Shown one piece after another: positions 1,229-16,408 of a stretch of DNA of 23,310 bases. The translations under genes were made by a program, and so were the position numbers. Position 1 is the first letter of the stretch. Each line of letters begins with the position of its first letter. The stretch comes from a virus (lineage: Duplodnaviria > Heunggongvirae > Uroviricota > Caudoviricetes): IMG/VR virus record IMGVR_UViG_3300000553_000015; one strand, 5' to 3'. Under the pieces are notes generated by a model. The model saw nothing but the letters and a program-made list of their open reading frames with translations. It searched no databases and had not been told where the DNA came from.

Positions 1229-3283
1229 TTATTTTGTTGTTGCTCGAAGAATTCCATCCCAGTCTTTGGGAAATGAGATATCTTCACCATATGTTTCTAT
1301 TCGTTTAATCATCATATCATAATAGTAGTCAAGTGCACCATTAAAAGAACCTTTTAATTCGAGGCATTCAACTGTTGCTAGCCACCATTGTTGTGATTGA
1401 TAATAATTAAACATTTTATTGTGTTTTAATCGATGTGCGTGTGAACTATTATTTGGTAATATTGTATAGATATCTAACCCAATAGTTTTTCCTTTAACTG
1501 CTATATCATCCAGTTTAATAACAAAATAATCATTCTCTACAAGTTTAGCAGTTGTGGGGCCAATTATTAATAATACACCATAACCTTTGGTTTGTCCTTC
1601 TAATCTAGCAGCAGTTGATACTGAATCACCAAGTACATCATACCCAAACCTTGCTTTAGACCCAATATTTCCGATTAATGTTGGTCCAGTATTAACACCA
1701 GCTCCCATACCAATTTTGGGTTTACCTTGTCGTACTAATTGCTCATTAAATTTGTCAACGGCTTCGATCATTTCTAAAGCAGTTCTTACCGCATTCTTAG
1801 CGTGGTATTTATCATCTAATGGTGCCCCATGTACATGTAAACTGGCATCACCTATGAATTTTATTAAACACCCATCATTCTTTAATACTGGGTCTGAAAT
1901 AGCAGTCATATAGTCATTCATGATTTTAGTTAACCCTTCTACATCTTCCCCATATGATTCCCCAAGAGTTGTAAACCCTCTTAGGTCTGTCATCACTATA
2001 GACAGCTCTTTCTTTTCGCCACCAAGTTTAATTAACTCTGGATTCTTCTGAAGTCTTTCAACCATTACAGGTGACACATAACTTCCAAATTGTTTCTTGA
2101 TTTGTTGTTTTTGTAAAAATTCATTTACAAATTTAATTCCATATGCATGTAAAGCAACCAAAATAATACCGCTAACTAGTGCAGTGATATCTAAAAGATA
2201 CAGATATTCTGTAAAAGCAAACCTACTTCCAATAACAATACACATTATGATAATGAAAGTGCTTGCTAACCCAACATATACCCATCTTGTTAAAATTAGT
2301 AAAAGTAAACATGAAAATAGTAGAATCCCTTCTTCAGCGGTATCTGCCCAAAACGGTCGTTGGATATTCACGTTATTCATCATTGTACTAATTACCGTTG
2401 CTTGCATATCTTGCGGCCAAACACTACCAATACTTGTAGGAACTGGGTTACCTAGTCCAGCAGCACTTGTACCCACGATTACTATAGCACCATCAAAATC
2501 ATCAGGTAAATGTTCTAAACTAAGTGATTTATGTTGTTGACTCCAATCTATCCATATACGTCCTAAGTTATCTGTGCTTATAGTACCAAACTCAGGAATA
2601 CGCATTTTATCAACACCAAATTCATTCAATTTTACTTGAAATGTTGATACACCTGATGCAACTCTAAGTGCTTCAATTGCAATACTAGGATACAGTTTTT
2701 CATTTACTGATACAACTAGCGGCATACGTCTATTAACACCATCAATTTCTGGTAATGTATTTGTTGTTCCTACACCAGCAGCATTCATTTCTAATGATTC
2801 TATATTTGCAATCAATCCAGGATATTGCACAATTCTATCTAAGTATTCTGAACCAATAACTACACTTCCTGGTGTTTTTGGTAAATTTTTAAATTGCTGA
2901 GACGGAACATTGCTTAACACAACAGGAAATTCTGATAAGTATTTTGCAAGTTGGGAATCTTGTCCACTACGATCCTTATCTGGCATAAGAACATTCCAAA
3001 CAACTAGACCTGCATTTTTAGAATATAAATCATTAATAATTTTTGCATACTCACCACGTGGGAATGGCCATTGACCATATTTGTTTAATGATTCTTCATC
3101 AATATTTACAGTAACAACACTATTTTCGGTTGGGTGTTTATTTGCTATTAATGTGTCAAAATATCTTAATCTAATTGATTCTACAAATGTCGGGTCTGAT
3201 ATTCTTATAACTAAGATTATTGCTAGTGTAATTAACGCTGTCCACACACTTGTTGCTATTTTTCTAAGGATCTGTTTGGTCAT
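1229..3283 (-). CDS. CHASE2-domain class III adenylate/guanylate cyclase
   Basis: N-terminal TM; CHASE2 (VVTVNIDEESL..YGQWPFPR, EIDGVNRRMPL); three TM helices; cyclase motifs SIVMTDLRGFT, KFIGDA, GVNTG..LIGNIGS...YDVLGDSVSTAARLE. K and D specificity residues suggest ATP. Confidence 0.92.
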   Translation of the reverse strand: MTKQILRKIATSVWTALITLAIILVIRISDPTFVESIRLRYFDTLIANKHPTENSVVTVNIDEESLNKYGQWPFPRGEYAKIINDLYSKNAGLVVWNVLMPDKDRSGQDSQLAKYLSEFPVVLSNVPSQQFKNLPKTPGSVVIGSEYLDRIVQYPGLIANIESLEMNAAGVGTTNTLPEIDGVNRRMPLVVSVNEKLYPSIAIEALRVASGVSTFQVKLNEFGVDKMRIPEFGTISTDNLGRIWIDWSQQHKSLSLEHLPDDFDGAIVIVGTSAAGLGNPVPTSIGSVWPQDMQATVISTMMNNVNIQRPFWADTAEEGILLFSCLLLLILTRWVYVGLASTFIIIMCIVIGSRFAFTEYLYLLDITALVSGIILVALHAYGIKFVNEFLQKQQIKKQFGSYVSPVMVERLQKNPELIKLGGEKKELSIVMTDLRGFTTLGESYGEDVEGLTKIMNDYMTAISDPVLKNDGCLIKFIGDASLHVHGAPLDDKYHAKNAVRTALEMIEAVDKFNEQLVRQGKPKIGMGAGVNTGPTLIGNIGSKARFGYDVLGDSVSTAARLEGQTKGYGVLLIIGPTTAKLVENDYFVIKLDDIAVKGKTIGLDIYTILPNNSSHAHRLKHNKMFNYYQSQQWWLATVECLELKGSFNGALDYYYDMMIKRIETYGEDISFPKDWDGILRATTK

Positions 3284-3485: not shown

Positions 3486-4505
3486 TTATTTTGTTTGCAT
3501 ATCTATTAGATTATCTTTAAAAATCTTCCAACAATTGTCCCAAGTCCATTTACTACTTGCATTATACACAATATCTCTATCTAAAGTTAAACATGATTCA
3601 ACACTAAATGATAGATCATCAGACATATGTCCAGTAACATTCTGTTCTAAAATATCAATAGGACCTGGAACAGGATATGCAGCAACTGGCGTTCCTACAC
3701 TCAAACTTTCAATGATAACTATACCAAACGTATCAGTTCTACTAGTAAACACAAAGACATCTGATTTAGCAAAATATTTTGCTAAATCACTTCCAGTTTT
3801 TGAGCCAACAAACCATACATTTTTATATTTCTTTTTTAGCTCTTCTAGGTATGGGCCATCACCAACTACTATTTTAGACACGTTTTTATAGTTTGGTAAT
3901 ACTAACTGACAGAAATCATCTAGACCTTTTTCTTTACTTACACGACCAACACTTAATAGTATTATTTCTTTATCTGAAAACTTTTTATTTTCATCACGTT
4001 TAAAAATAGTTCGATCAACACCACGTGTCCATGGTATGATATCACCATTAAACCCATGTGCTTTTAAATCATCGACCATTGTTTTAGTAGTTGTTAGCAC
4101 TTTACCAGAATGCTTATGAAACCATCTTACATAAGAATATGTAATATTTTCTGGAATATTATATAACTTTTTTAGAAATTCTGGAAATTTTGTATGATAT
4201 GCTGATGAAAAATTTATATTATGTTTCTTGCACCAAAAAAGAACGGCTAATCCAAGTGGTCCTTCTGTCGCAATATGAATATAATCTGGGTTAATTGCTT
4301 TGATTTTTTTATCAATCTGCCACGGAATACTTATTTTTACTTCTGGGTATCCAAATGCTGGAAAATTGAAGAACATATCTGGAAAGATATATTTTACAAT
4401 ATATCCATTTGTTAGTGCGTGTTTTTCTATATTTTTATAAGTAGTAACTACACCGTTGATCTGGTTATGTGAATTATCTGTGACTATCAATATTGTTTTT
4501 TTCAT
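3486..4505 (-). CDS. GT4 glycosyltransferase, Agt-like (glycosyl-diacylglycerol synthase family)
   Basis: ILIVTD...QINGVVTT, YPEVK, PDYIHIATEGPLG, AYHTKFPE, VGRVSKEKG, DVFVFTSRTDTFGIVIIESLSVGTPVAAYPVPGP (D-x7-E GT4 motif). Confidence 0.88.
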   Translation of the reverse strand: MKKTILIVTDNSHNQINGVVTTYKNIEKHALTNGYIVKYIFPDMFFNFPAFGYPEVKISIPWQIDKKIKAINPDYIHIATEGPLGLAVLFWCKKHNINFSSAYHTKFPEFLKKLYNIPENITYSYVRWFHKHSGKVLTTTKTMVDDLKAHGFNGDIIPWTRGVDRTIFKRDENKKFSDKEIILLSVGRVSKEKGLDDFCQLVLPNYKNVSKIVVGDGPYLEELKKKYKNVWFVGSKTGSDLAKYFAKSDVFVFTSRTDTFGIVIIESLSVGTPVAAYPVPGPIDILEQNVTGHMSDDLSFSVESCLTLDRDIVYNASSKWTWDNCWKIFKDNLIDMQTK

Positions 4506-4726: not shown

Positions 4727-5479
4727 TTATTCTTGAATTGAAGTCCAGTATATTATTTCAAATGACCCATCATGATTTTCAACTAATGCAGATAACGATT
4801 CAACCCAATCTCCATCATTCATGATTATAATACCATCTATATCTTTTATAACAGGGGTGTGTGTATGCCCTGCTATGACACCATCAAACCCTCGTTTTTT
4901 ACAATAGTTTGCCAATGTTACTTCAAACTGAAACAAAAAGTCAACCGCTGATTTAACTTTGTGTTTAAGGTATTTACTTAAACTCCAATAACCAAATCCT
5001 AATTTATGTCTAATCCAATTAAATTTGTTGTTAACCGCTAATATTAAATCATAACCTTTATCACCTAAAAATCCAAGCCATGGTGCAATTTTACTAATCC
5101 CATCAAATAGATCGCCGTGAGTAACAAGATATCTTTTACCATCTACCCCAATATGTTCTGCTTGATTATGAATTGAAATTTTACCAAATGAAATGCCAAG
5201 ACCAATCATTGGACGTAGAAATTCATCGTGATTTCCAGCTACATAGATTACTTTTGTACCATGCTTTGCAATACCTAGTATTCTACGAACCACATTGGAA
5301 TGACTTTGCTTCCACTTGAGTTTATTTTGTTGAATCTTCCATCCATCTATGATATCTCCTATTAGGTATAGGGTCTCACAAGAATTATGTTTTAGAAAAT
5401 TATTTAGTTGATCTGCTTTGCAATCACGAGTTCCAAGATGAACGTCGCTAATAAAAATAGTGCGATATGTTTTATTCAT
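4727..5479 (-). CDS. Calcineurin-like metallophosphoesterase, PlcP/LpxH-like (probable phospholipase C)
   Basis: YRTIFISDVHLGT..CKA, LYLIGDIIDGW, YVAGNHDE, HGDLFD, GHTH, NDGDWVES. The pattern matches PlcP-type enzymes, and the gene neighbours an Agt-like GT4. Confidence 0.82.
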   Translation of the reverse strand: MNKTYRTIFISDVHLGTRDCKADQLNNFLKHNSCETLYLIGDIIDGWKIQQNKLKWKQSHSNVVRRILGIAKHGTKVIYVAGNHDEFLRPMIGLGISFGKISIHNQAEHIGVDGKRYLVTHGDLFDGISKIAPWLGFLGDKGYDLILAVNNKFNWIRHKLGFGYWSLSKYLKHKVKSAVDFLFQFEVTLANYCKKRGFDGVIAGHTHTPVIKDIDGIIIMNDGDWVESLSALVENHDGSFEIIYWTSIQE

Positions 5480-5704: not shown

Positions 5705-6577
5705 TTAGTTTAATTTGCTTTCTATAAAAGAAACAATAGCACCTGCAACATCGGTATTACAATATTTTTCAAAACCACTAAATCCTGGGTTTGAGTTGGC
5801 TTCACATACTCTAAATCCTCGTGAATCAAACAGTAAATCTATACCTGCTATATCTAATTTTAGTATATTAGCAGCATTTACAGCTATTTCAGCTATTTCT
5901 GGGGTTATTTCAAATGATTCACCAGTTCCACCATTTGTAATGTTAGCACGGAAATCTCCATCAGGTGCAGTTCTTTTCATAGCACCTAGAACTTTCCCAC
6001 CTATGACCAATACTCTTAAGTCTTCACCAGGTCTTTCACCAATATACTCTTGTGCTATTAATACCTTTGTATTATATACAATATTGACAAAATCTACAAA
6101 TCTTCGATAATCTTCTGTGGTATTACATAAATGAACACCTTCACCAAAACTTCCAACTACTACTTTTATAATACATGGAAATCCAATATGTTCATTTACA
6201 AGATCATTTGTTATTGGGTGTTTTACTATTATTGTTGTAGGAACCGCAATACCGGCTTTACTTAATATTTCACCTGAATGAAATTTATCTTGAACTATGT
6301 TAATACTATCACTTGAATTAAAACATGGTATATTAGATAGTTCAAAATATCTTACAACTGATAGATCTTTTCTGCCGATACCAGCACCTACCCTTACTAG
6401 AATTGCTTTTGGTAATTCAAGTTTTTCACCATCATAGTAAATACCATCGTTAATTATGATATCAATTTTTTCAAAATAACAAACTTTAGCGACAATTTCT
6501 TTCTCTTCAAACTTTTCGATTAGCTTTGTTGTTTCATATTCGTGTTTACTTTGTTTAGCTAAAATTATAACTGACAT
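5705..6577 (-). CDS. RimK-family ATP-grasp ligase
   Basis: QDKF...L..AGIAVPTT, GFPCIIKVVVGSFGEGV, IAQEYI, DLRVLVIGGKVLGAMKR, DFRANITNGG, GIDLL, VCEANSNPGF. Confidence 0.88.
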   Translation of the reverse strand: MSVIILAKQSKHEYETTKLIEKFEEKEIVAKVCYFEKIDIIINDGIYYDGEKLELPKAILVRVGAGIGRKDLSVVRYFELSNIPCFNSSDSINIVQDKFHSGEILSKAGIAVPTTIIVKHPITNDLVNEHIGFPCIIKVVVGSFGEGVHLCNTTEDYRRFVDFVNIVYNTKVLIAQEYIGERPGEDLRVLVIGGKVLGAMKRTAPDGDFRANITNGGTGESFEITPEIAEIAVNAANILKLDIAGIDLLFDSRGFRVCEANSNPGFSGFEKYCNTDVAGAIVSFIESKLN

Positions 6578-6602: not shown

Positions 6603-6677
6603 TTAACGGGTATTGATATAGCAGGTTACTTCAAACCCTAATCTAATATCATTGTATGTAGGTGTACTCCAAATCAT
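6603..6677 (-). CDS. pqqA: PqqA, pyrroloquinoline quinone precursor peptide (24 aa)
   Basis: Not in the track. MIWSTPTYNDIRLGFEVTCYINTR fits the PqqA pattern W..P...D.R.G.EVT.Y...R with the E-x3-Y pair. AGGAG RBS 7 nt upstream. Confidence 0.88.
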   Translation of the reverse strand: MIWSTPTYNDIRLGFEVTCYINTR

Positions 6678-6735: not shown

Positions 6736-7854
6736 TTACTGTCCTTGTTGTACAGAAATTTTAGGACATCCACCGGTTGTAGCACAGTTGAAGTTTATTG
6801 AATATGATTGTTGTAAAGATCCAGCTTGATTTAGACTTAAATCTACTGGTAAACCTGACAACGTGACATTTGCCATATGATTACCAGAGCCTTGTTGTGT
6901 GATATCAACATTTTTATTACCACCACTTAATGTGGTTTCTATATACTGATTGCCATTACCCGATTGATTTGTAATTAATGATGAATTATTACCTATTATA
7001 TTAGCAGAAACTTGTTTACTTCCACCTTCATTTGATTGTGTCAATGATGCGGTATTTGAGTTTCCTATTATATTTAATGTTGCGTAGTTGGTAGAGGTAC
7101 TATTGGATGATGATTGTGTAATGTTTACGGAATTACTGTTACCATTGCCATAATAATTTGCGTAGTTATTTTTAGTACCTGTTTGATTTACGGTTATTGT
7201 ATTTGCAGACCCAATTTGATCAATATAAACCTTACTATCCGATGTTGCTCTATTGATATAGGATTGGATATTGGCATTATCAAATACATTTATAGTAAAT
7301 GGCGATGATGATGCACCACAACATACTGGTGGAACAAATACATTAACAGATGTTCCTAAGTTTGTAAATGGAACAACCGCTATGCCACCAATATCCCAGT
7401 CAAGTTGTATAACAGCCCCACCACCATTTTCATAATACCAAACATCCATGGTATATATTTGCCCTGAAGTAAGTAATATACTACCAGAACTATTATAATT
7501 TGCCGGACCTTGTTCTATCCAGTTATTGATTACAGTGGTACCATTTATAGTCATATAAAATCCATCATCACTACGATCATAAAATGTTACATTTTTCAAA
7601 CCAGTGTTTGTAGCACCGGGCCACAGAATATATCCAGTAAAGTGTATTAAAACCCCATCGGATAATCCACTATTCATAACAACTCCAGAACCCCAATCAT
7701 AGTTTAACGTATTAGCAACTCCAGATGCTAAGACTGTTCTGTTAGTTGTCATTGATGGTGTTGCACCACCTGCTGCATATACTGTATAATTTAATCCAGC
7801 AATATCAACTGCGTAAACATTAAAACTCAATAAAAATAAAATGATATATCTCAT
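6736..7854 (-). CDS. Secreted PA14-domain / curlin-repeat fusion protein
   Basis: Signal peptide; PA14 motifs (HFTGYI, SDDGFYMTING..VINNW, YYENGGGAVIQLDW); C-terminal N/Q/G-rich repeats (VYIDQIGSANTITVNQTG, GNSNSVNITQS, GNSNTASLTQS, NVDITQQGSGNH). Confidence 0.82.
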   Translation of the reverse strand: MRYIILFLLSFNVYAVDIAGLNYTVYAAGGATPSMTTNRTVLASGVANTLNYDWGSGVVMNSGLSDGVLIHFTGYILWPGATNTGLKNVTFYDRSDDGFYMTINGTTVINNWIEQGPANYNSSGSILLTSGQIYTMDVWYYENGGGAVIQLDWDIGGIAVVPFTNLGTSVNVFVPPVCCGASSSPFTINVFDNANIQSYINRATSDSKVYIDQIGSANTITVNQTGTKNNYANYYGNGNSNSVNITQSSSNSTSTNYATLNIIGNSNTASLTQSNEGGSKQVSANIIGNNSSLITNQSGNGNQYIETTLSGGNKNVDITQQGSGNHMANVTLSGLPVDLSLNQAGSLQQSYSINFNCATTGGCPKISVQQGQ

Positions 7855-8936
7855 TGTTTTGGTACTCCTGGATTTTGAATAATTGTAACAATATTTCCAC
7901 CAGGAGTACCAGTACCTATAACTGCTGCCCCCGGACTATAGTTTTGTGTAATAAATACTGATGTGTTTGATGCAAAGCCAAATGTTTTTACTTCTGCGTA
8001 ATCTTGTGAACCTAATACCCTAAATGCAATACCTTTTCCTTTACCTTGTGTATCAGTTGCTGCTGAATTTTCCCATGAAATACATACATTAGTAGTTGGG
8101 TCACACCCATTCTCATTTGCTTCACGTATTAATGAAAGTAATCTTGCTTCGGAATCTTGTGTATTTTTGGAAACTTGATTAACTAACCTTCTAGCCATTT
8201 CCTCTTCCATTGCTTGAACTTCTTTATCTTTTGGTGATTTACTGGACTCCTTGACTACCTTTTGCACTTCCAGTGGTTTGACTAGAATAAGGTTATTTGA
8301 AATCTTTGATTCTATTATGTTAACAGTTGTTGGTAGACTGGGTGACATTGTTGCACTTTGGACATATGTAGCTTCATATGCTTTATCTAATGATACGGTA
8401 CCAGCAAGTGTCGTAACATCTATTTTACCTACTGCGCATATATTTTCTTGAAGTTCGTACTGTTTGATATCTTTTTTATCTTTACAACTTGGTACTAATA
8501 CTATTAAAGACTGACCAGCTTCATCTACAGTCATTGTGAAATCTGTACCTCTAACTGCAATAGTAGCTGTAGGTGTTTTTATTCCAACTTGCTGTGGATT
8601 ATTTTTAGCAATTTGCCCAGATGCATACCTTACTGTACCCATACCTACTTTTAAAGCAAGTTTTCCAGCATCTGATTGTTTTGGGTCAAACACAAAATCA
8701 TCTATTAATAATCTACTATTTTCATTTACTTTGACGTTTGTATCATCTTTGAATTTTATATCAGCAACACAACCACCGGTAATATAAGTGTCCATACTTT
8801 CTATTGAAGCACCTTTATTACCTGGTAGTTTTTGTTTATTACGTTCTATTTGGCAGGATATTCCTTTAGTTTCTCCCACTGAGCCAATATCAGCCCATAC
8901 ATTAGAAGAAACCAACATGAATATAATCCACCACAT
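7851..8936 (-). CDS. Exported FecR-domain protein
   Basis: Signal peptide; FecR core (DTYITG, IKFKDDTNVKVNENSRLLID, G.VRYASG, IKTPTATIAVRGTDF). Confidence 0.85.
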   Translation of the reverse strand: MWWIIFMLVSSNVWADIGSVGETKGISCQIERNKQKLPGNKGASIESMDTYITGGCVADIKFKDDTNVKVNENSRLLIDDFVFDPKQSDAGKLALKVGMGTVRYASGQIAKNNPQQVGIKTPTATIAVRGTDFTMTVDEAGQSLIVLVPSCKDKKDIKQYELQENICAVGKIDVTTLAGTVSLDKAYEATYVQSATMSPSLPTTVNIIESKISNNLILVKPLEVQKVVKESSKSPKDKEVQAMEEEMARRLVNQVSKNTQDSEARLLSLIREANENGCDPTTNVCISWENSAATDTQGKGKGIAFRVLGSQDYAEVKTFGFASNTSVFITQNYSPGAAVIGTGTPGGNIVTIIQNPGVPKQ

Positions 8937-8937
8937 A

Positions 8938-9723
8938 TTATCTTGCTATTGCTGATTGTGGGCTCACTATGGTTGCAGAACTTGTTCTAACAGTAACGGT
9001 ATTGAAGTCACCTTGAGTTAATATATTAACGTTAGTATTGTTTGCACCTTGTTGTTGGGTGTATATAACATTACTACTTCCAGTAATATTCTCAACTAAA
9101 GAATGAACACCAACATCATTTTGTTGTGTGTTTATAATGTTGCTATTACCTGAAATATTAATAGTACTATTATCGCTAGAACCTGCTATTCCAGAAGTAC
9201 TAGTTATATTTTGTGTAACTTGGTTGAAGTTACCAGATGCTGATAAGAAACTGGTAATATAGTTACCTATTAAATTTTGTAATGATAAGTTGCTATCACC
9301 TGTTATTAATTCGGTAATAGTATTATAGTTATTAGATGGATTTCCTTGACTACCAACTGTTAATGATGTTTGGTTACTACTTCCAGTAATGGTACTAGTA
9401 TACATATTGTTACCACCTAGGATATTATATTGCGCCCAATCGTTATTACCATGTTGTGTAATGTTTAGAATATTGCTACTACCTGTAACGGTTCCATAGT
9501 TCAATGCACTTGCTGCTACTGGTGTAACCGATGTAACACCAGCTGAATCAACCGAAATAGTTCCAGATGTTCCACCAACGGTGTTAGTTCCACCTACTTG
9601 TTCAACATTAATAGTATTTGATGTTCCTATTTGTTCTATATAAACATTATTTGGTCCAGTTGATATTCCAACTCCAAATGCTGTTTGTGATAGAAATGTT
9701 GTTAATAAAAGATATTTTTTCAT
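8938..9723 (-). CDS. Curlin-repeat (CsgA/CsgB-like) secreted protein
   Basis: Signal peptide; repeats such as NNVYIEQIGTSNTINVEQVG, SNILNITQHGNND, GNSNIINTQQ, GSSNVIYTQQQG, NILTQGDFNTV. Lies directly after csgG. Confidence 0.8.
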   Translation of the reverse strand: MKKYLLLTTFLSQTAFGVGISTGPNNVYIEQIGTSNTINVEQVGGTNTVGGTSGTISVDSAGVTSVTPVAASALNYGTVTGSSNILNITQHGNNDWAQYNILGGNNMYTSTITGSSNQTSLTVGSQGNPSNNYNTITELITGDSNLSLQNLIGNYITSFLSASGNFNQVTQNITSTSGIAGSSDNSTINISGNSNIINTQQNDVGVHSLVENITGSSNVIYTQQQGANNTNVNILTQGDFNTVTVRTSSATIVSPQSAIAR

Positions 9724-9728
9724 TGCTC

Positions 9729-10535
9729 CTACCCCTTAAATGCCCAGATTCCTTTTCTAGCACCTTCTTTAATTGTTTCGACAACTGCTGCTTGTATTGC
9801 CTTATTAGTAGCTCTATTAATGCTCTCGTTAATAGAACCGCCTACCTCTGCTTCCACTGCCATTGTTCCGGCATCTATAAATTTAAGTAATCCAACACGA
9901 TCTAAATAACTTAAAACAGTTTTAGTGATTGTAACACTAGTTAATACTTCTCCTGTATTAACCGAAACAGTTCTTAAACTGATAGTTACTGTATCACTTT
10001 GGTATTGTGTATCTGCTCCAATACCAAAGAATCTTACACCTGCTCCACCTGTTATTGTATTAGAATCATATCCTACGATTGACCCTTCTACTATAATACC
10101 AGCAAATGTCATAGCAGGCAATGATATTGCATCTTTACCTTGAAATTGTTCACGCATTTGACGAATCATTTGACGTTCTTTAATCAAATTCTCTAATCCA
10201 ACACGTTCTACAACTTTAAACCACACACCATTACCAGCATCTTGTAATGCTTTAATCAAGTATCCTTCACCACCTTGAGTAACAGCAGAACTTAAACTGG
10301 CAATTCCAGTTATTGATTTACGTTGACCAGTTTTATCCATAAAACCATATACTGCAACAGGAACAGGTCCACCAACTGGCGGTTTTAATTGATTTTCTTC
10401 TTTTTTAAGGTATGTGCTAATACTTTCATTTACCGGATCATCAAACTGTTCACCAGTTAATAACTTATGTATAGAACTACCTGTTGCACATCCTTGTAAT
10501 AATGTTATTGCACATAATATAATAATCTTTTTCAT
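9729..10535 (-). CDS. csgG: Curli secretion channel lipoprotein CsgG
   Basis: Lipobox LLQGC; VAVYGFMDKTGQRK, LSSAVTQG, WFKVVERVGLENLIKERQMIR, IIVEGSIVGYD, LRTVSVNTGEVL. Confidence 0.92.
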   Translation of the reverse strand: MKKIIILCAITLLQGCATGSSIHKLLTGEQFDDPVNESISTYLKKEENQLKPPVGGPVPVAVYGFMDKTGQRKSITGIASLSSAVTQGGEGYLIKALQDAGNGVWFKVVERVGLENLIKERQMIRQMREQFQGKDAISLPAMTFAGIIVEGSIVGYDSNTITGGAGVRFFGIGADTQYQSDTVTISLRTVSVNTGEVLTSVTITKTVLSYLDRVGLLKFIDAGTMAVEAEVGGSINESINRATNKAIQAAVVETIKEGARKGIWAFKG

Positions 10536-10537
10536 AG

Positions 10538-11023
10538 CTAAAAATAAAATGTCCCCGCTGGTACTGAAATTTGTGTGGTTTGACTAGGATTTGAGTTGTT
10601 GGTAATATTAATTAAAATCATACCATTATTTGAACCACTTCCTAATCCCCAGGTTACCGTATTCCCACCAAGATCTGGAATTGTTCCACAGACTGTACCT
10701 GGTGTAGTACATGTTGGATTTCCAGTCCCACCAAAAATACTATTTGTTAGTTGTTGAGCCAGTTGTGAATAAATTCTAGATTGTAAATTTGCTATAAATT
10801 GTGCCTGTGGTGTATTTGCAGCTGCAGCCTCAGCTTGTTGTTTTATGGCAGCAGCAGCTGCTTGATTCTGTGATGTCGCTTGGTTTTCTAACTGCTGAAT
10901 AGTTAATATATGTGAACTATAGCCAGCACCACTGAATGATGGACTATTAAATCCAAATTGTATTTCGGCAGCAAAAGATGGCATAGCTGCTAAAAATAAT
11001 ATAAAACCTACTATTTTACTCAT
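10538..11023 (-). CDS. csgF: Curli assembly factor CsgF-like
   Basis: Signal peptide then FGFNSPSFSG (CsgF F.NP.FGG-like), QFIANLQSRIYSQL, TTQISVP; adjacent to csgG. Confidence 0.78.
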   Translation of the reverse strand: MSKIVGFILFLAAMPSFAAEIQFGFNSPSFSGAGYSSHILTIQQLENQATSQNQAAAAAIKQQAEAAAANTPQAQFIANLQSRIYSQLAQQLTNSIFGGTGNPTCTTPGTVCGTIPDLGGNTVTWGLGSGSNNGMILINITNNSNPSQTTQISVPAGTFYF

Positions 11024-11079
11024 GTTTGTTGCTCCTAATATTATATTTAAGCGATAACAAATATGAGTAAAACTAGTAG

Positions 11080-11754
11080 TTAACTAGATGGGAATAGACA
11101 GTTATTAATATATTCTACTGCTTCTTCTTCTGACAATCCTAACATCATCAATACTTTAGGATTGTGTGGGTTAAGACGTTGATTTTCAACATAATATTTA
11201 TGTTTATTTGAAATATCATCGCTTGTGTTGTTTGTATCAGATAACGATGCTAGATATACGTCTAATGTATCTGCTATCATATCAGATATTTGCGTTAGCT
11301 CTTCATCTGATTGTACGTTACCAGCAGCAATAATATCATTTGAAAATATACGTTGTGCCCATTCTGGTAATTCACGTTTCTTATTCCAAGATAACTTTGC
11401 AGATTCATTTGCAAACCATTCTGATAACGGATGATTATCTGATACTGGACTAAAATCATGAAAACAACCTGTGATTTTATTCTTACCAGCAAATACATCA
11501 AACCCAAATATTGGAGCAGGATTATGAAAATGTGGATAAATGCAACAATGCATCATCCACAACCCACGAGTATCTATTGCATCAATAATATTGACATGTG
11601 CTTTTCTATATAAATCAGATTCCCAGGTTAGATTACTCCAACCTGGCTTGTTAAACTGAACAGCTTCTGGTATATGAATTTCTTCACCTGAATGATCAAA
11701 TTTATATTTAAATAGCTGACTTATATCAATAAGCGACATTTGAATGTTATTCAT
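11080..11754 (-). CDS. Ferredoxin-dependent bilin reductase (PcyA/PcyX type)
   Basis: YRKAHV, LWMMHCCIYP, PIFGFDVFAG, FHDFSP, RELPEWAQRIFS, YVENQRLNPH. Start uncertain (11754 or 11739). Confidence 0.85.
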   Translation of the reverse strand: MNNIQMSLIDISQLFKYKFDHSGEEIHIPEAVQFNKPGWSNLTWESDLYRKAHVNIIDAIDTRGLWMMHCCIYPHFHNPAPIFGFDVFAGKNKITGCFHDFSPVSDNHPLSEWFANESAKLSWNKKRELPEWAQRIFSNDIIAAGNVQSDEELTQISDMIADTLDVYLASLSDTNNTSDDISNKHKYYVENQRLNPHNPKVLMMLGLSEEEAVEYINNCLFPSS

Positions 11755-12061
11755 CAATAGGTAGCCATGCCCACGATTTTATTATATTCTTAATACTAGG
11801 TCTTCGCCTAAATAACCATATTTTACGATGTGGTCTTGTTTTTACAATAAAATCATATGGATCCATCTGCGTAACTACTTTAGAAAATGGTGATTCTATT
11901 CTAATATACCATCCATCATTTTGTGTGCCAATTACGTCTGATGAATACACGTGCTTGCTATACGGTTGATATTTGACTTTTATAGATTTACCAAATGATA
12001 ATAGAACATTTGAAACATATGGTTCACCTTGAATATTTGTTTTTATCTTAATTAGTTTCAT
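11747..12061 (-). CDS. Hypothetical protein between heme oxygenase and bilin reductase
   Basis: 104-aa ORF overlapping both neighbours, implying translational coupling; no family recognised. Confidence 0.6.
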   Translation of the reverse strand: MKLIKIKTNIQGEPYVSNVLLSFGKSIKVKYQPYSKHVYSSDVIGTQNDGWYIRIESPFSKVVTQMDPYDFIVKTRPHRKIWLFRRRPSIKNIIKSWAWLPIDE

Positions 12062-12590
12062 CCAATGCCTTCATGATTTTTATAGCCCATTCAAATGCTA
12101 CTCTAGCTTCATCTCCTAAATCATCAGTTAATTCTGCTCTAATAGCATTTCGTAGACCTTCAACATCTTCAAATTGATAGAACTTACCAGAACCTGGAAC
12201 AGTCTTAGCGATATATTGCCCACCATTCAATGTCCCTAGGTGATGAACATATAAATGAGCTTTTATTAAATGCTTACGTTCTAAATCGTTGATTAAATCT
12301 TGCAGATATCTAATATATTCCAATGTTTCTTGTGTCCACGTGTAATGAATCTCTTTATCAGCTAATTCAAGAAAATCTTGATAGATATATTTTGTTCTAT
12401 CAATACCAGATAATTTAGAAAAAAATCCCTGAACTTGCGCTCCAAATTCAATAGTGGAATATATTGGGATCATTTGCCACAAATAGTTTATATATAATTC
12501 TCTTGGTAATTTTCCTGAAATGATTAATTTCATAAAATCAGTTTGTTCAGCTTGTGTATGTAAATCTTTAGTGATTTCGCGTAATGACAT
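12048..12590 (-). CDS. Heme oxygenase
   Basis: MSLREITKDLHTQAE (proximal His helix), AHLYVHHLGTLNGGQ (distal helix), EARVAFEWAIKIM; AAGGA RBS. Confidence 0.88.
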   Translation of the reverse strand: MSLREITKDLHTQAEQTDFMKLIISGKLPRELYINYLWQMIPIYSTIEFGAQVQGFFSKLSGIDRTKYIYQDFLELADKEIHYTWTQETLEYIRYLQDLINDLERKHLIKAHLYVHHLGTLNGGQYIAKTVPGSGKFYQFEDVEGLRNAIRAELTDDLGDEARVAFEWAIKIMKALDETN

Positions 12591-12614
12591 ATATTGTTCC
12601 TTTAATAAACGTAT

Positions 12615-12643
12615 ATTATAACACTATGATAATATAATGTCAA
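12615..12643 (-). promoter_or_regulatory. Perfect sigma70 promoter TTGACA-N17-TATAAT
   Basis: -35 at 12638-12643, -10 at 12615-12620; faces the heme oxygenase gene. Confidence 0.8.
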
Positions 12644-12692
12644 GAAAAATATAAATAAAGATGTAGTTCACGGAATTGGCGTTCCCAACTAC
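12638..12692 (+). repeat. 55-nt endonuclease leader, copy 1 (late promoter plus hairpin)
   Basis: 51/55 identical to 16749-16803. Contains TATAAATA 12650-12657 and hairpin GTAGTT 12663-12668/AACTAC 12687-12692 with inner GGAA/TTCC. Confidence 0.85.
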
Positions 12693-12718
12693 ACTAACGT
12701 CTATGGAGGACAATCAGC

Positions 12719-13541
12719 ATGAGTATTTATACAGAAATACAACCAACATATCTTTATATAAAAAAGCATTCAATTACTGGTCTAAAATATTTTGGAAAAA
12801 CTAGTAAAAAAGACCCATACAAGTATCTAGGATCTGGAAAATATTGGAAAAAACATATCAAAAAACATGGAAAACAATTTGTAGAAACATTATGGGTTTC
12901 AGAATTATATTATGACACTTCAATTATTGACCATGCTTTGCATTTTTCAAATGAAAATAATATAGTATTGTCAGATGATTGGGCCAACTTGGTAATGGAA
13001 AATGGTATAGATGGAGGGGTATCTGGGGTATCTGGGACATCACCATCGGTAGAAACTAGATCTAAGTTATCAATCGCTAATAAAGGTCATACAGTGACTC
13101 AGGAAACACGCACTAAAATATCATCAGCGCATAAAGGCAACCCGAAATCAAAAGAAACTAGATAAAAAATATCAGTTGCAAAAAAAGGCACAATATGTTC
13201 TTATGAAACTAAACTAAAATTATCTATTGCTAATAAAGGAAAGATAAAAATCTGATGAAACTAAAGCAAAATTGTCTATAGCAAATACAGGAAAAAAAGC
13301 ATCAGCGGATACTTTAATAAAAATGTCTATCGCCGGTAAAAATATTTCTGACGAAACACGTAGGAAAATGTCTGATTCTAAAAAGGGTAGTATATTATCA
13401 GTTGAAGTTAAATCAAAAATTTCAGCTGCACACAAAGGACGAATTTTTAAAACAGCAGAATGTCCACATTGTAATAAGTCTGGAAGAATTAATAATATGA
13501 CCAGATATCATTTCAATAATTGTAAATTAAAATATCAATAA
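12719..13541 (+). pseudogene. Degenerate free-standing GIY-YIG-type homing endonuclease with NUMOD3-like repeats
   Basis: YLY-x10-YFG motif followed by about eight 17-aa S.ETR.K.S.A.KG repeats and a C-terminal CPHC..CK tail. Broken by in-frame TAA at 13163-13165 and a one-base frameshift near 13238-13250. The track ORFs 12719..13165 and 13272..13541 are its pieces. Confidence 0.82.
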
Positions 13542-13545
13542 AACA

Positions 13546-13570
13546 ACTGTATGCATTAAATGCATACAGT
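13546..13570. terminator. Perfect 11-bp inverted repeat between convergent genes
   Basis: ACTGTATGCAT-TAA-ATGCATACAGT between the endonuclease stop and the clpS stop. Confidence 0.55.
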
Positions 13571-13587
13571 ATTATGATTATTTATTA

Positions 13588-13890
13588 TTATTCAGATTGT
13601 TCAATTTTGATCTGTAATGGAAAACCATTTTCTCTTGCAAGTTTTGTCGCTTCTACTGCTTTAATTTCTGCAATTTCAAAATCATAAAATCCAGCAATAC
13701 CAGATCCAGATTCGTGGACTTGTAATGTAACATTTGTTGCGGAATCCATTGAATGTTTAAATATTTCAATAAGCATAGCAATTACAAAATCAATTGGTGT
13801 ATGATCATCATTGATTATGATAACTTTCCATCGTTTTGGTTCTGACACTTTAATACTTACTTTTTCTTCGGTGATAACATCTGTTGACAT
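13588..13890 (-). CDS. clpS: ATP-dependent Clp protease adaptor ClpS
   Basis: EPKRWKVIIINDDHTPIDFVIAMLIEIF, VHESGSGIAG, EIAEIK, ARENGFPL. Confidence 0.92.
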   Translation of the reverse strand: MSTDVITEEKVSIKVSEPKRWKVIIINDDHTPIDFVIAMLIEIFKHSMDSATNVTLQVHESGSGIAGFYDFEIAEIKAVEATKLARENGFPLQIKIEQSE

Positions 13891-13908
13891 ATTGTTTTCC
13901 TTTAATGT

Positions 13909-13926
13909 GGGGGAGTTTCCTCCCCC
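13909..13926 (-). other. GC-rich hairpin between hsp20 and clpS
   Basis: GGGGGAG-GAAA-CTCCCCC on the minus strand; no U-tract, so more likely a stability/processing element than a terminator. Confidence 0.45.
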
Positions 13927-13937
13927 TGGTGATAAAA

Positions 13938-14363
13938 TTATTTAATTTCTATTTGACGAGGTTTATGTGCCTCTGGCACTACGTATTCTACTGAAATTTT
14001 TAACATTCCGTCTTTAACTACTGCACCTCTAACTTCCATAAATTCTACTAATGGAAATTCGGTTACAAAATTTCTAGCAGCTAATCCACGATGAATAAAT
14101 TCAGTACCTTCTGGTAATGATGTATCATGTTCTCCTCTAATAGTGATAATATTTTGGTCAACTTCGATAGAAATATCTTCTCTACTAAACCCAGCCACTG
14201 CTAGTTCAATAGCGTAATCTGTTTCAGTATATCTTATGATATTATGAGGTGGATAGTTTGATTGTGGTGAATTAGTTCTGGCATTTACCATTCTATCAAA
14301 CCCTACTAGTGCTTTACTTAAATTAGCAAGTTCTGCTGCAGTTATTGTTCTTAATTGTGTCAT
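13938..14363 (-). CDS. Small heat shock protein (Hsp20/IbpA-like)
   Basis: NYPPHNII, YAIELAVAGFSREDISI, FIHRGLAARNF, GAVVKDGMLKI, PEAHKPRQIEIK. Confidence 0.93.
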   Translation of the reverse strand: MTQLRTITAAELANLSKALVGFDRMVNARTNSPQSNYPPHNIIRYTETDYAIELAVAGFSREDISIEVDQNIITIRGEHDTSLPEGTEFIHRGLAARNFVTEFPLVEFMEVRGAVVKDGMLKISVEYVVPEAHKPRQIEIK

Positions 14364-14371
14364 TTTATTTT

Positions 14372-14424
14372 CTCCTTATATTAAGCAAGATGTTCATAAT
14401 ACCCAAATGGCATACTATGAACAT
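14372..14424 (-). promoter_or_regulatory. ROSE-like RNA thermometer in hsp20 leader
   Basis: CUUGCUU (14383-14389) pairs with SD AAGGAG (14372-14377) with a bulged G; 12-bp hairpin upstream at 14390-14424. Confidence 0.65.
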
Positions 14425-14452
14425 ATTATATCACATTTTTCTTAAATGTCAA
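14425..14452 (-). promoter_or_regulatory. sigma70 promoter TTGACA-N16-TATAAT (with extended -10 TGn)
   Basis: -35 at 14447-14452 overlaps the dnaK stop; -10 at 14425-14430; faces hsp20. Confidence 0.6.
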
Positions 14453-16341
14453 ACTTCAGTGAATTCAGCATCCAACGGTTCGTCAGAATTAGCTTCTGAT
14501 GATGTTTGTTTAGCTTGTTCAGCTTCTTGTTTTTTTGCAAATACTGGACTTGCTGCTTCATACAATTTTGTTACTGAATTGGTAATTGCCTCAACATCAT
14601 CACCTTTGGTAGCTTCTTCAACTTTAGATAATGCTGATTCAAACGCTAGTTTTTCATCATCTGATAATTGGTCAGCAACTTCATCAAAGTCTTTTTCTAA
14701 TGAATGTTTTTGAGCATCGGCATTATTACGAGCTTCAATTAGTTCTTTAGCTTTTTTATCAGCATCTGCATTTGCTTCGGCATCTTTTATCATTTGTTCA
14801 ATTTCAGATTCACTTAATCCAGAATCAGATTTAATGGTAATATTATTTTTCTTACCAGTACCTTTATCTTGTGCTGATATATGCATAATACCATTAGCAT
14901 CAATATCAAAGGTTACTTCAATTTGTGGAACGCCACGACGAGCTGGTTCAATACCTTCCAAATTAAATTCACCTAATTGTTTGTTATATTGATATAACTC
15001 ACGTTCACCTTGCCCAACTTTAATATTTACTGCAGGTTGGTTGTCATCCGCAGTTGAGAATACTTGACTAGCTTTTGTAGGGATCGTAGTATTCTTTTGA
15101 ATGATTTTGGTAAACACACCACCCATTGTTTCAATACCCAATGACAATGGTGTAACATCCAATAATAATACGTCAGTTTTATCACCTGACAATACTGCAC
15201 CTTGGACCGCAGCACCAGCCGCAACTGCTTCATCTGGGTTAACATCTTTACGTGGTGCTTTGCCAAATAGTTTTTCAACTGCTTCTTGTACTTTGGGCAT
15301 ACGTGTTTGACCACCAACTAAAATAATTTCATCAATATCTGATAATTTTACTTTAGCGTCTTTAATAGCAATTTTACATGGGGCAATACTTCTTTCAATT
15401 AAATCTTCTACTAATGCTTCAAATTTAGCACGAGTTAATTTAACATTCAAATGTTTTGGACCACTTGCATCTGCTGTTAGGTATGGTAGATTAACGTCTG
15501 TTTGTTCAGCTGATGATAATTCAATTTTAGCTTTTTCAGCTGCTTCTTTTAAACGTTGCAATGCTAATGTATCATTTTTAAGATCAACACCACTATCTTT
15601 CTTAAATTCAGTTACTAAGAAATCCATGATACGTTGATCGAAATCTTCACCACCTAAGAATGTATCACCATTAGTTGATAATACTTCAATTTGTTTCTCA
15701 CCATCTATGTTTGAGATTTCAATGATAGAGATATCAAATGTACCACCACCTAAGTCATAAACAGCAACTTTGCTATCTATATTATCTTTTTTATCAACAC
15801 CAAATGCTAATGCAGCAGCAGTAGGTTCATTGATGATACGCAATACTTCTAGCCCAGCAATACGGCCAGCATCTTTAGTTGCTTGTCTTTGTGAATCATT
15901 GAAATATGCAGGAACTGTGATAACAGCTTGTGATACAGAATATCCTAAATAATCTTCTGCAGTTTTCTTCATTTTACGAAGAACTTCGGCTGATATTTGT
16001 GGTGGGGCTAATTTCTCACCATTTGCTTCGACCCAAGCATCTCCATTATCTGCTTCCAGAATAGTGTATGGCATTAAGTCTATGTCTTTTTGAACTGCGT
16101 CTTCAGCAAATTTACGACCAATCAAACGCTTTGCAGCATAGATTGTATTTTTTGGATTAGTTACTGATTGACGTTTTGCTGCAGCACCAACTAAAACTTC
16201 ATTGTCAGTGTATGCTATGATAGAAGGCGTTGTTCTTGTACCTTCTGAATTTTCGATTACTTTTGCTGAACCATTTTCTAAAATAGCTACGCAAGAATTT
16301 GTAGTACCTAAATCGATACCGATGACTGTATTTTTACTCAT
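14449..16341 (-). CDS. dnaK: Molecular chaperone DnaK (Hsp70)
   Basis: [72 protein letters not shown]. Start set at MSKNT (16341, AAGGAG RBS) rather than the track's 16401. Confidence 0.97.
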
Positions 16342-16349
16342 AATATTTT

Positions 16350-16408
16350 CTCCTTTTATTAAGCGAGGTGTTATTGGCATTATGCCATATATTAAACCCA
16401 ATTGGCAT
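16350..16408 (-). promoter_or_regulatory. ROSE-like RNA thermometer in dnaK leader
   Basis: CUCGCUU (16361-16367) pairs with AAGGAG (16350-16355) with a bulged G; upstream AUGCCA/UGGCAU stem. Confidence 0.6.

Follow-up and report, generated by a model that had tools for sequence, protein, structure and literature searches.

A 23,310-nucleotide stretch of viral DNA (the window, i.e. the whole stretch that was analysed) contains on its minus strand a compact cassette of curli-type (type VIII) secretion genes and, downstream of it, a gene for a CHASE2 adenylate cyclase. The window spans bases 4973-28282 of a viral record in IMG/VR, a fragment of 37.9 kb (CheckV completeness 11%). The cassette consists of five minus-strand open reading frames (ORFs) at positions 6736-11023; counted from csgF, the first four are separated by 2, 5 and 1 nt, and the last two overlap by 4 nt. 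The cyclase gene lies 3453 bp beyond the cassette. The genes and the families to which we assigned them are:

10538..11023, minus strand: csgF-like gene, 161 aa (PF10614, E-value 1.6e-7, 31.9 bits vs a cut-off of 25.8)
9729..10535, minus strand: csgG, 268 aa (PF03783, E-value 1.3e-48, 165 bits)
8938..9723, minus strand: curlin 1, 261 aa (Curlin_rpt 15.9 bits, under the cut-off of 20.7; assigned by family profile)
7851..8936, minus strand: FecR-like periplasmic protein, 361 aa (PF04773, E-value 1.1e-10, 42 bits)
6736..7854, minus strand: curlin 2, a PA14-curlin fusion, 372 aa (PF07691, 33.8 bits vs a cut-off of 24)
1229..3283, minus strand: CHASE2 receptor adenylate cyclase, 684 aa (PF05226, E-value 2.5e-39; PF00211, E-value 2.3e-19)

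These assignments agree with the original prediction for this DNA, which had proposed a co-oriented, tightly packed run csgF-csgG-curlin-fecR-PA14/curlin with signal peptides on all five products, no visible csgE, csgC or csgD, and a CHASE2 cyclase about 3.5 kb downstream. In a heuristic check each of the five cassette proteins begins with a hydrophobic segment, behind which a -3/-1 cleavage-type site is seen; the same check finds no such export segment in the RimK-type, metallophosphoesterase, GT4 and bilin reductase proteins encoded nearby. Profiles of CsgE and CsgC (PF10627, PF10610) have no match in the 37.9-kb record, itself a fragment, and no LuxR-type (CsgD-like) regulator was found among the window ORFs scanned with Pfam.

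A freshwater copy of the viral curli module

The gene order described above is known from phages of the marine SAR11 and OM43 groups. Zaragoza-Solas et al. (2020, PMC7029224) reported a five-gene "curli operon" in pelagimyophages, for which they proposed "sibling capture", and Buchholz et al. (2022, PMC9004378) proposed a lysis-timing pore for the phage Melnitz. Wittmers et al. (2022, PMC9599517) described CsgF-CsgG-CsgA/B-FecR-CsgA/B-adenylate cyclase as one conserved module of myo- and podophages, in which FecR and the cyclase are not always included in the podophage version; the viral type VIII secretion system (T8SS) module is expressed in metatranscriptomes and present at 65/65 GOV2 stations, and aggregation, superinfection defence and import are discussed as its roles. 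CHASE2, PA14, discoidin and lectins are not mentioned in the main texts of these three papers.

In the GenBank records of Pelagibacter phage HTVC008M (KC465899, coding sequences at 7562-13807) and Melnitz (genes 99-104) the order is the same as in the window: CsgF, CsgG and a curlin are followed by a protein annotated as FecR-domain or hypothetical, by another annotated as a second curlin or as hypothetical and, immediately after it, by the adenylate cyclase. A Pfam scan assigns PA14 and curlin repeats to the fifth protein of HTVC008M, and CHASE2 to the cyclases of both phages. Further carriers of the viral T8SS are pelagimyophage metagenome-assembled genomes (MAGs) and podophages of the HTVC023P type. 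The CsgG proteins of the published phages are 41-45% identical to that of the window, and CsgE, CsgC and CsgD are absent from both; on the other hand, the window cyclase is displaced by a 3.45-kb insert (RimK, phosphoesterase, GT4) while it adjoins the cassette in HTVC008M and Melnitz, the window lacks the histidine kinase of the podophage version, and its DNA derives from freshwater metagenomes. We conclude that the window carries a further copy of the published viral type VIII (curli) module, known from T4-like phages that infect streamlined aquatic bacteria, here in a freshwater phage. The original prediction had named only csgF and csgG as reported from a methylotroph phage, and implied that the substrates and the signalling arm were new; the first view is outdated, as the Melnitz and HTVC008M records show the whole gene run, and the second was anticipated in 2022 by the description of one conserved pelagiphage module (PMC9599517). 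Aggregation, which the prediction also put forward, had likewise been published before, as had superinfection defence and "sibling capture" (PMC7029224, PMC9599517).

To quantify the conservation of the module, we carried out a CsgG-seeded scan of IMG/VR, which yielded 136 relatives and 80 retained loci, and matched the window proteins to all ORFs of these loci; synteny was counted in the 43 loci with at least 9.5 kb of sequence downstream of csgG. CsgF, curlin 1 and the FecR-like protein are each present in 43/43 loci, curlin 2 in 42/43 and the CHASE2 cyclase also in 42/43, in all of which it is found within 10 kb. The distance between curlin 2 and the cyclase varies from -33 to 4388 bp; the 3453-bp gap of the window thus lies in the normal range, and the cyclase counts as a member of the module, as the original prediction had supposed. 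The linkage is deep: relatives of the FecR-like protein at only 26-30% identity still reside in cassettes of the type CsgF-CsgG-x-FecR-CHASE2 cyclase, one of them rearranged so that the cyclase gene is located between csgG and the FecR-like gene.

The stretch belongs to a T4-like tailed phage. Beyond the cassette the record encodes a match to long-tail-fibre families, a Nol-like carbamoyltransferase (shared with HTVC008M) and a homing endonuclease, and a protein search with CsgG retrieves HTVC008M at 45% identity and, at 41%, four Melnitz phages of Methylophilales, which are without exception T4-like Kyanoviridae; on these grounds we assign the stretch to a phage. The gene order is also that of the isolated phages HTVC008M and Melnitz and of 80 IMG/VR contigs. 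The worry that the contig might be bacterial, raised in the original prediction as a condition that would undo it, is therefore answered by the tail-fibre-like protein, the homing endonucleases and the synteny with T4-like phages. A megablast search of the whole window against GenBank phages found nothing, hence no near-identical genome has been deposited. All of the 20 public runs holding the stretch (15 studies) are freshwater, lake or freshwater-sediment metagenomes, and none of the 20 is an RNA run. The curli operon was reported missing from freshwater pelagimyophages (Zaragoza-Solas et al. 2020, PMC7029224), and our literature search found no published description of a freshwater copy of the module. 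The cassette was also observed on viral contigs of 285-372 kb (L031, L049, L076, L061), as compared with about 140 kb for pelagimyophages; these carriers may be jumbo phages or concatenated assemblies.

The pore and the putative fibre subunits

The CsgG homolog aligns over residues 1-266 with E. coli CsgG structures in PDB (3x2r, 4uv3, 6l7a; E-value 2.6e-48) and possesses a lipobox (LLQG-C16), thus it is predicted to form an outer-membrane lipoprotein pore. The CsgF homolog has a signal peptide, and the N-terminus of its mature form, AEIQFGFNSPSFSG, is similar to the peptide with which CsgF enters the barrel of CsgG, while a phmmer comparison with CsgF sequences from PDB gave no match. The phage module has in common with the E. 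coli curli system (csgBAC / csgDEFG) a lipoprotein pore (CsgG), its cap (CsgF) and secreted subunits that consist of curlin repeats. It differs in that the window lacks CsgE, CsgC and CsgD, the constriction residues of CsgG are not kept, one subunit bears a folded lectin head, and the module also includes a FecR-like protein and a cyclase. We know of no curli in the host of this phage.

Both secreted subunits are curlin-type beta-solenoids, according to family profiles for the two proteins and an AlphaFold2 (AF2) model for curlin 2. Curlin 1 comprises a signal peptide, about 8-9 curlin-like strand-turn-strand repeats with periodically spaced invariant G, N and Q residues (alignment of 34 sequences), and a conserved basic C-terminal tail ending in Arg; the profile built from 34 homologs matches the solved curlin-repeat protein 8c50 (E-value 1.3e-6), and the ortholog from HTVC008M is annotated as CsgB-like. 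The curlin 2 profile (alignment of 46 sequences) matches the same structure in six repeats (E-value 4.2e-17). In curlin 2, the signal peptide is followed by a PA14 head (residues ~20-165), a CC-containing linker and a solenoid (residues 207-370) with a C357/C363 pair, and the AF2 model shows a head of the beta-sandwich type and, behind it, 14 regular strands in residues 207-370 (pLDDT ~90).

The head of curlin 2, which the original prediction took for a glycan-binding domain, indeed has a lectin-type fold: Foldseek retrieves the PA14 lectins of the Marinomonas RTX adhesin MpIBP, yeast flocculins and Epa adhesins, the sequence matches the PA14 domain of RsgI3 (E-value 2e-15), and a DDG motif is present at residues 96-98. 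Fold and motif are thus common to the phage domain and to PA14 lectin domains found in RTX adhesins (Marinomonas MpIBP, LapA-like), in flocculins of yeast and in RsgI3; in the phage, however, PA14 is fused to curlin repeats, and its sugar binding is putative. Analysis of the domain distribution among the curlin 2 orthologs reveals a variable N-terminal part: Pfam assigns PA14 to 7/46 and an F5/8 type C (discoidin) domain to 14-15/46, the others are headless or have no assignable head, and the length of the protein ranges from 140 to 640 aa. The CCGGS linker, the solenoid and the terminal Cys pair are kept while the head swaps, a pattern consistent with diversifying pressure on a tip that binds ligands.

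The FecR-like protein and the CHASE2 cyclase

The AF2 model of the FecR-like protein (pLDDT 87) has three parts: a beta domain (residues ~18-200) is connected by a long helix (222-276) to a second, small beta domain at the C-terminus (284-354). The first domain superposes on the cell-surface-signalling domain of PupR (6ovk) with a Z-score of 15.8 and a root-mean-square deviation of 2.6 over 135 aligned residues, i.e. it has the fold of the periplasmic domain of the FecR/PupR anti-sigma regulators, which in PupR binds the periplasmic signalling domain of an outer-membrane barrel. The FecR domain as defined by sequence begins at residue 49, after a 15-residue signal-peptide-like segment ending VWA-D. 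In contrast to FecR/PupR, the phage protein carries this cleavable signal peptide instead of the cytoplasmic anti-sigma domain and the transmembrane (TM) anchor, and the Pfam scan of 20 window ORFs found neither an extracytoplasmic function (ECF) sigma factor nor a TonB-dependent transducer. Because the anti-sigma domain, the membrane anchor and the nearby partners are all missing, the protein is neither a FecR-type transducer nor an iron regulator, and the label "FecR transducer" given to it in the original prediction has to be dropped.

Relatives of the FecR-like protein number about 5,900 at 90% clustering. We searched one genome per GTDB species with an alignment of 11 FecR-like sequences. 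Ten close matches (L093-L102) are located on MAG contigs binned as Actinobacteria, Verrucomicrobia, Bacteroidota, Planctomycetota, Rhodobacteraceae and Pelagibacter; csgG is present in 9/9 of those with visible flanks and the cyclase in 7/9, the tenth match being a 1.6-kb fragment too short to reveal its flanks. These contigs are probably mis-binned phage. The 70 more distant bacterial loci, mostly alphaproteobacterial with additional representatives from Elusimicrobiota and Myxococcota, exhibit a different pattern: a CHASE2 cyclase adjoins the FecR homolog in 26/70, and CsgG is found in 0/70. A Pfam check of the bacterial pair confirmed six cyclases and two FecR neighbors (e.g. in Litorimonas cladophorae). 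Since the two genes adjoin without CsgG in 26/70 loci, the FecR-like protein and the CHASE2 cyclase would thus represent an older bacterial envelope-sensor pair, which the phage cassette has joined to the T8SS. The expectation that FecR-domain proteins accompany CHASE2 receptors in bacteria is borne out by these 26 loci and by two published cases (PMC5498481, PMC5192318). In the alphaproteobacterium Sinorhizobium meliloti the CHASE2 cyclase CyaD1 is encoded beside SMc02177 (FecR domain) and SMc02178 (PMC5498481, PMC7529298), i.e. likewise next to a secreted FecR-domain protein, and its signalling needs the outer-membrane beta-barrel NsrA; there are, however, no curli genes, the likeness to the phage FecR-like protein is at the domain level, and a role of SMc02177 in perception was not supported in the S. 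meliloti study (PMC5498481, PMC7529298). The Burkholderia "BiofilmReg" operon, which is linked to biofilm formation and composed of a response regulator, a LysM-FecR protein and a CHASE2 histidine kinase (PMC5192318), resembles the phage pair in that the gene for the periplasmic FecR-domain protein lies immediately upstream of that for the CHASE2 receptor, but the output is a histidine kinase and not a cyclase, LysM is present, and there is no secretion pore. The most distant FecR homologs (L084, L085, L086) were observed between genes for a two-partner secretion exoprotein and a ShlB/POTRA-type transporter, which indicates that this FecR clade accompanies outer-membrane secretion of beta-helical proteins in bacteria too.

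The C-terminus of the FecR-like protein (encoded at 7851-7990) displays a motif h-x-h-x-Q ... G-G-N-x-h-x-I-x-Q that stops 2-3 residues from the end and is kept down to 27% identity; its terminal strand, "GNxVxIxQ", is conserved in 68 homologs. The motif looks like half of a curlin repeat, and we considered it as a fibre-docking element, an idea that we dropped as evidence and retain as a lead only: a profile-profile comparison with the curlin family was not significant (3% probability, E-value 0.015), and the AF2 model, which shows a small multi-strand beta domain and not a lone arc, also disfavors a docking curlin arc. A likeness of the C-terminal domain to the "cell surface anchoring domain" of an RTX adhesin (5ix9) was discarded too, as VIA-align places the match on residues 14-110 of the FecR domain with a Z-score of 7.0, which is too weak. 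Searching the ESM Atlas with this C-terminal domain yielded nothing usable.

The cyclase contains a TM segment (residues 5-35), a periplasmic CHASE2 domain, a TM cluster (313-386) and a cytoplasmic class III catalytic domain (424-600), which aligns with CyaB from Pseudomonas aeruginosa (3r5g, E-value 4e-20). Lys475 corresponds to a Glu of the guanylate cyclase Cya2 and indicates that ATP is the substrate. Of the catalytic residues, the two metal-binding Asp (D433, D479), the ATP-specifying K475 and the transition-state Arg (R560) are present, and Ser556 is found at the site of the transition-state Asn (GDSVSTAARLE vs the motif GDxVNLASRLE). Among 50 distinct cyclases from phage cassettes, 33 have Ser and 17 have Asn at this site; Asn is present in 18/18 bacterial FecR-linked CHASE2 cyclases with a readable motif.

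Between the cassette and the cyclase the window contains three further genes, identified with Pfam:

5705-6577, minus strand: RimK-type ATP-grasp protein
4727-5479, minus strand: metallophosphoesterase
3486-4505, minus strand: GT4 glycosyltransferase

They encode cytoplasmic enzymes outside the conserved module, and the content of the gap differs among loci (nothing, RimK only, or the metallophosphoesterase with GT4). Between curlin 2 and rimK we also noticed a 24-codon ORF, MIWSTPTYNDIRLGFEVTCYINTR, at 6603-6677 on the minus strand, which is preceded by a ribosome-binding site and resembles the PqqA precursor peptide.

Upstream of the cassette, Pfam identifies a bilin reductase, heme oxygenase, ClpS, Hsp20, DnaK, homing endonucleases and a helicase-methylase. 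Five of these form a block, DnaK-Hsp20-ClpS-heme oxygenase-bilin reductase (11080-16401, minus strand), which is situated directly upstream of csgF and whose order before csgF is kept in about half of the 80 related viral loci (L004-L083). Promoter scans were no better than chance (69 sites vs 68 expected from shuffled sequence). A perfect TTGACA-17-TATAAT promoter with an extended -10 TG was seen upstream of the heme oxygenase gene (12615-12643, minus strand); it could drive a long transcript via the bilin genes into the curli cassette.

Proposed function and alternative explanations

On balance we lean, by a small measure, towards a reading in which the two curlins are exported via CsgG/CsgF into lectin-tipped fibres, and the FecR-like/CHASE2 pair makes cyclic AMP (cAMP) in response to a cue from the cell envelope. 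During infection, the Sec and Lol pathways of the host would place CsgG in the outer membrane, where CsgF would cap it, and curlin 1 and curlin 2 would cross the pore unfolded to polymerise outside as a fibre. Curlin 1, with its basic C-terminal tail, would likely be the cell-proximal, CsgB-like subunit, and the interchangeable heads of curlin 2 (PA14, discoidin or none) could bind glycans on neighboring cells or particles. As a recruited bacterial pair, the FecR-like protein and the CHASE2 cyclase would most likely turn a periplasmic or outer-membrane cue into cAMP, and this cue could be the pore itself or the flux of substrates through it.

Several points weigh against this reading. The fibres are hypothetical, and physical contact between the FecR-like protein and its supposed partners (CsgG, the curlins, CHASE2) is conjectural. 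CsgE, which in E. coli feeds and gates CsgG, is absent from the 37.9-kb record (a fragment). Residues Y51, N55 and F56, which form the constriction of E. coli CsgG, are replaced ("pyp-asnfs" aligned with "sitgiasls" in the alignment to 3x2r). The Pfam Curlin_rpt scores of both curlins are below threshold (15.9 and 19.5 bits), and the PA14 head, with its 150 residues, would need unfolded passage via the pore. Judging by the Ser in place of the transition-state Asn, the activity of the cyclase may be low or altered, and three unrelated genes part it from the cassette in the window. Finally, no clumping of Melnitz-infected cells was seen in cytograms or by transmission electron microscopy (PMC9004378).

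The last observation, together with a modelled CsgF with extra domains, comes from the work on Melnitz in which CsgG/CsgF was proposed to form a gated channel of the outer membrane and to set the time of lysis, much as pinholins or secretins do, with no fibre being made (PMC9004378). This explanation, which would also accommodate the absence of CsgE from the record and the loss of the CsgG constriction residues, seems to us decidedly improbable. The Melnitz proposal assumed that csgA and csgB are missing, whereas two curlins with signal peptides are kept in 43/43 and 42/43 loci and their profiles match a solved curlin; moreover, a pore through the outer membrane alone leaves the inner membrane polarised, the T4-late motif TATAAATA does not occur upstream of csgF, and no lysis gene is located beside the cassette in the window. 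Still less probable is an ungated CsgG pore through which the infected cell takes up cofactors, iron chelates or larger solutes, FecR being a regulator related to iron, as proposed in PMC7029224 and PMC9599517; the absence of CsgE from the record would suit it, but the FecR-like protein has no anti-sigma domain, there is no TonB-dependent transducer or ECF sigma factor in the window, the bacterial relatives pair with CHASE2 cyclases or two-partner secretion genes and not with iron transporters, and the conserved lectin-headed curlins are left unexplained. That the stretch is bacterial, or that the proteins are parts of the virion, we regard as hardly credible: relatives do occur on contigs binned into MAGs of several phyla, but the tail-fibre-like gene, the homing endonucleases, the phage auxiliary genes and a gene order shared with isolated phages and 80 IMG/VR contigs speak for a phage, and the Sec signal peptides and the lipobox argue against virion parts.

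The remaining explanations concern the link between the fibre and the cyclase. The FecR-like/CHASE2 pair might be a sensor independent of curli, which raises host cAMP for takeover and is merely genetically linked to the pore genes in a variable island. The pair occurs without CsgG in 26/70 bacterial loci, FecR and the cyclase are sometimes missing from podophage modules (PMC9599517), and the cyclase is preceded here by three unrelated genes, with the gap ranging from -33 to 4388 bp across loci. We consider such independence unlikely, since a curlin gene flanks the FecR-like gene on either side (curlin 1 separated from it by 1 nt, curlin 2 overlapping it by 4 nt), 42/43 loci contain the cyclase, and the linkage holds to 26% identity and through the csgG-cyclase-FecR rearrangement. 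At the other extreme, the module could be an outside-in sensor of the phage, in which lectin-headed fibres report glycan contact with neighboring cells or particles, or their own assembly, cAMP tunes the infection to cell density or surface contact, and the FecR-like protein, whose two globular domains are connected by a helix about 8 nm long, is docked to CHASE2 on one side and to the CsgG pore or the curlins on the other; this goes well beyond the export of fibres plus envelope-responsive cAMP synthesis that we favor, and we put it forward as a speculative scheme that is rather unlikely to be correct in full.

In phages of the most abundant aquatic bacteria, few auxiliary gene sets are as widespread as this module. 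The analysis of the freshwater copy refines its description in that the protein called "FecR" is one half of a bacterial FecR/CHASE2 sensor pair and not an iron regulator, the second fibre subunit has interchangeable lectin heads, and the module is not confined to marine phages. If it is true that infected cells produce sugar-binding amyloid fibres and read their envelope through cAMP, this would affect aggregation, carbon export, superinfection and gene exchange in the plankton.

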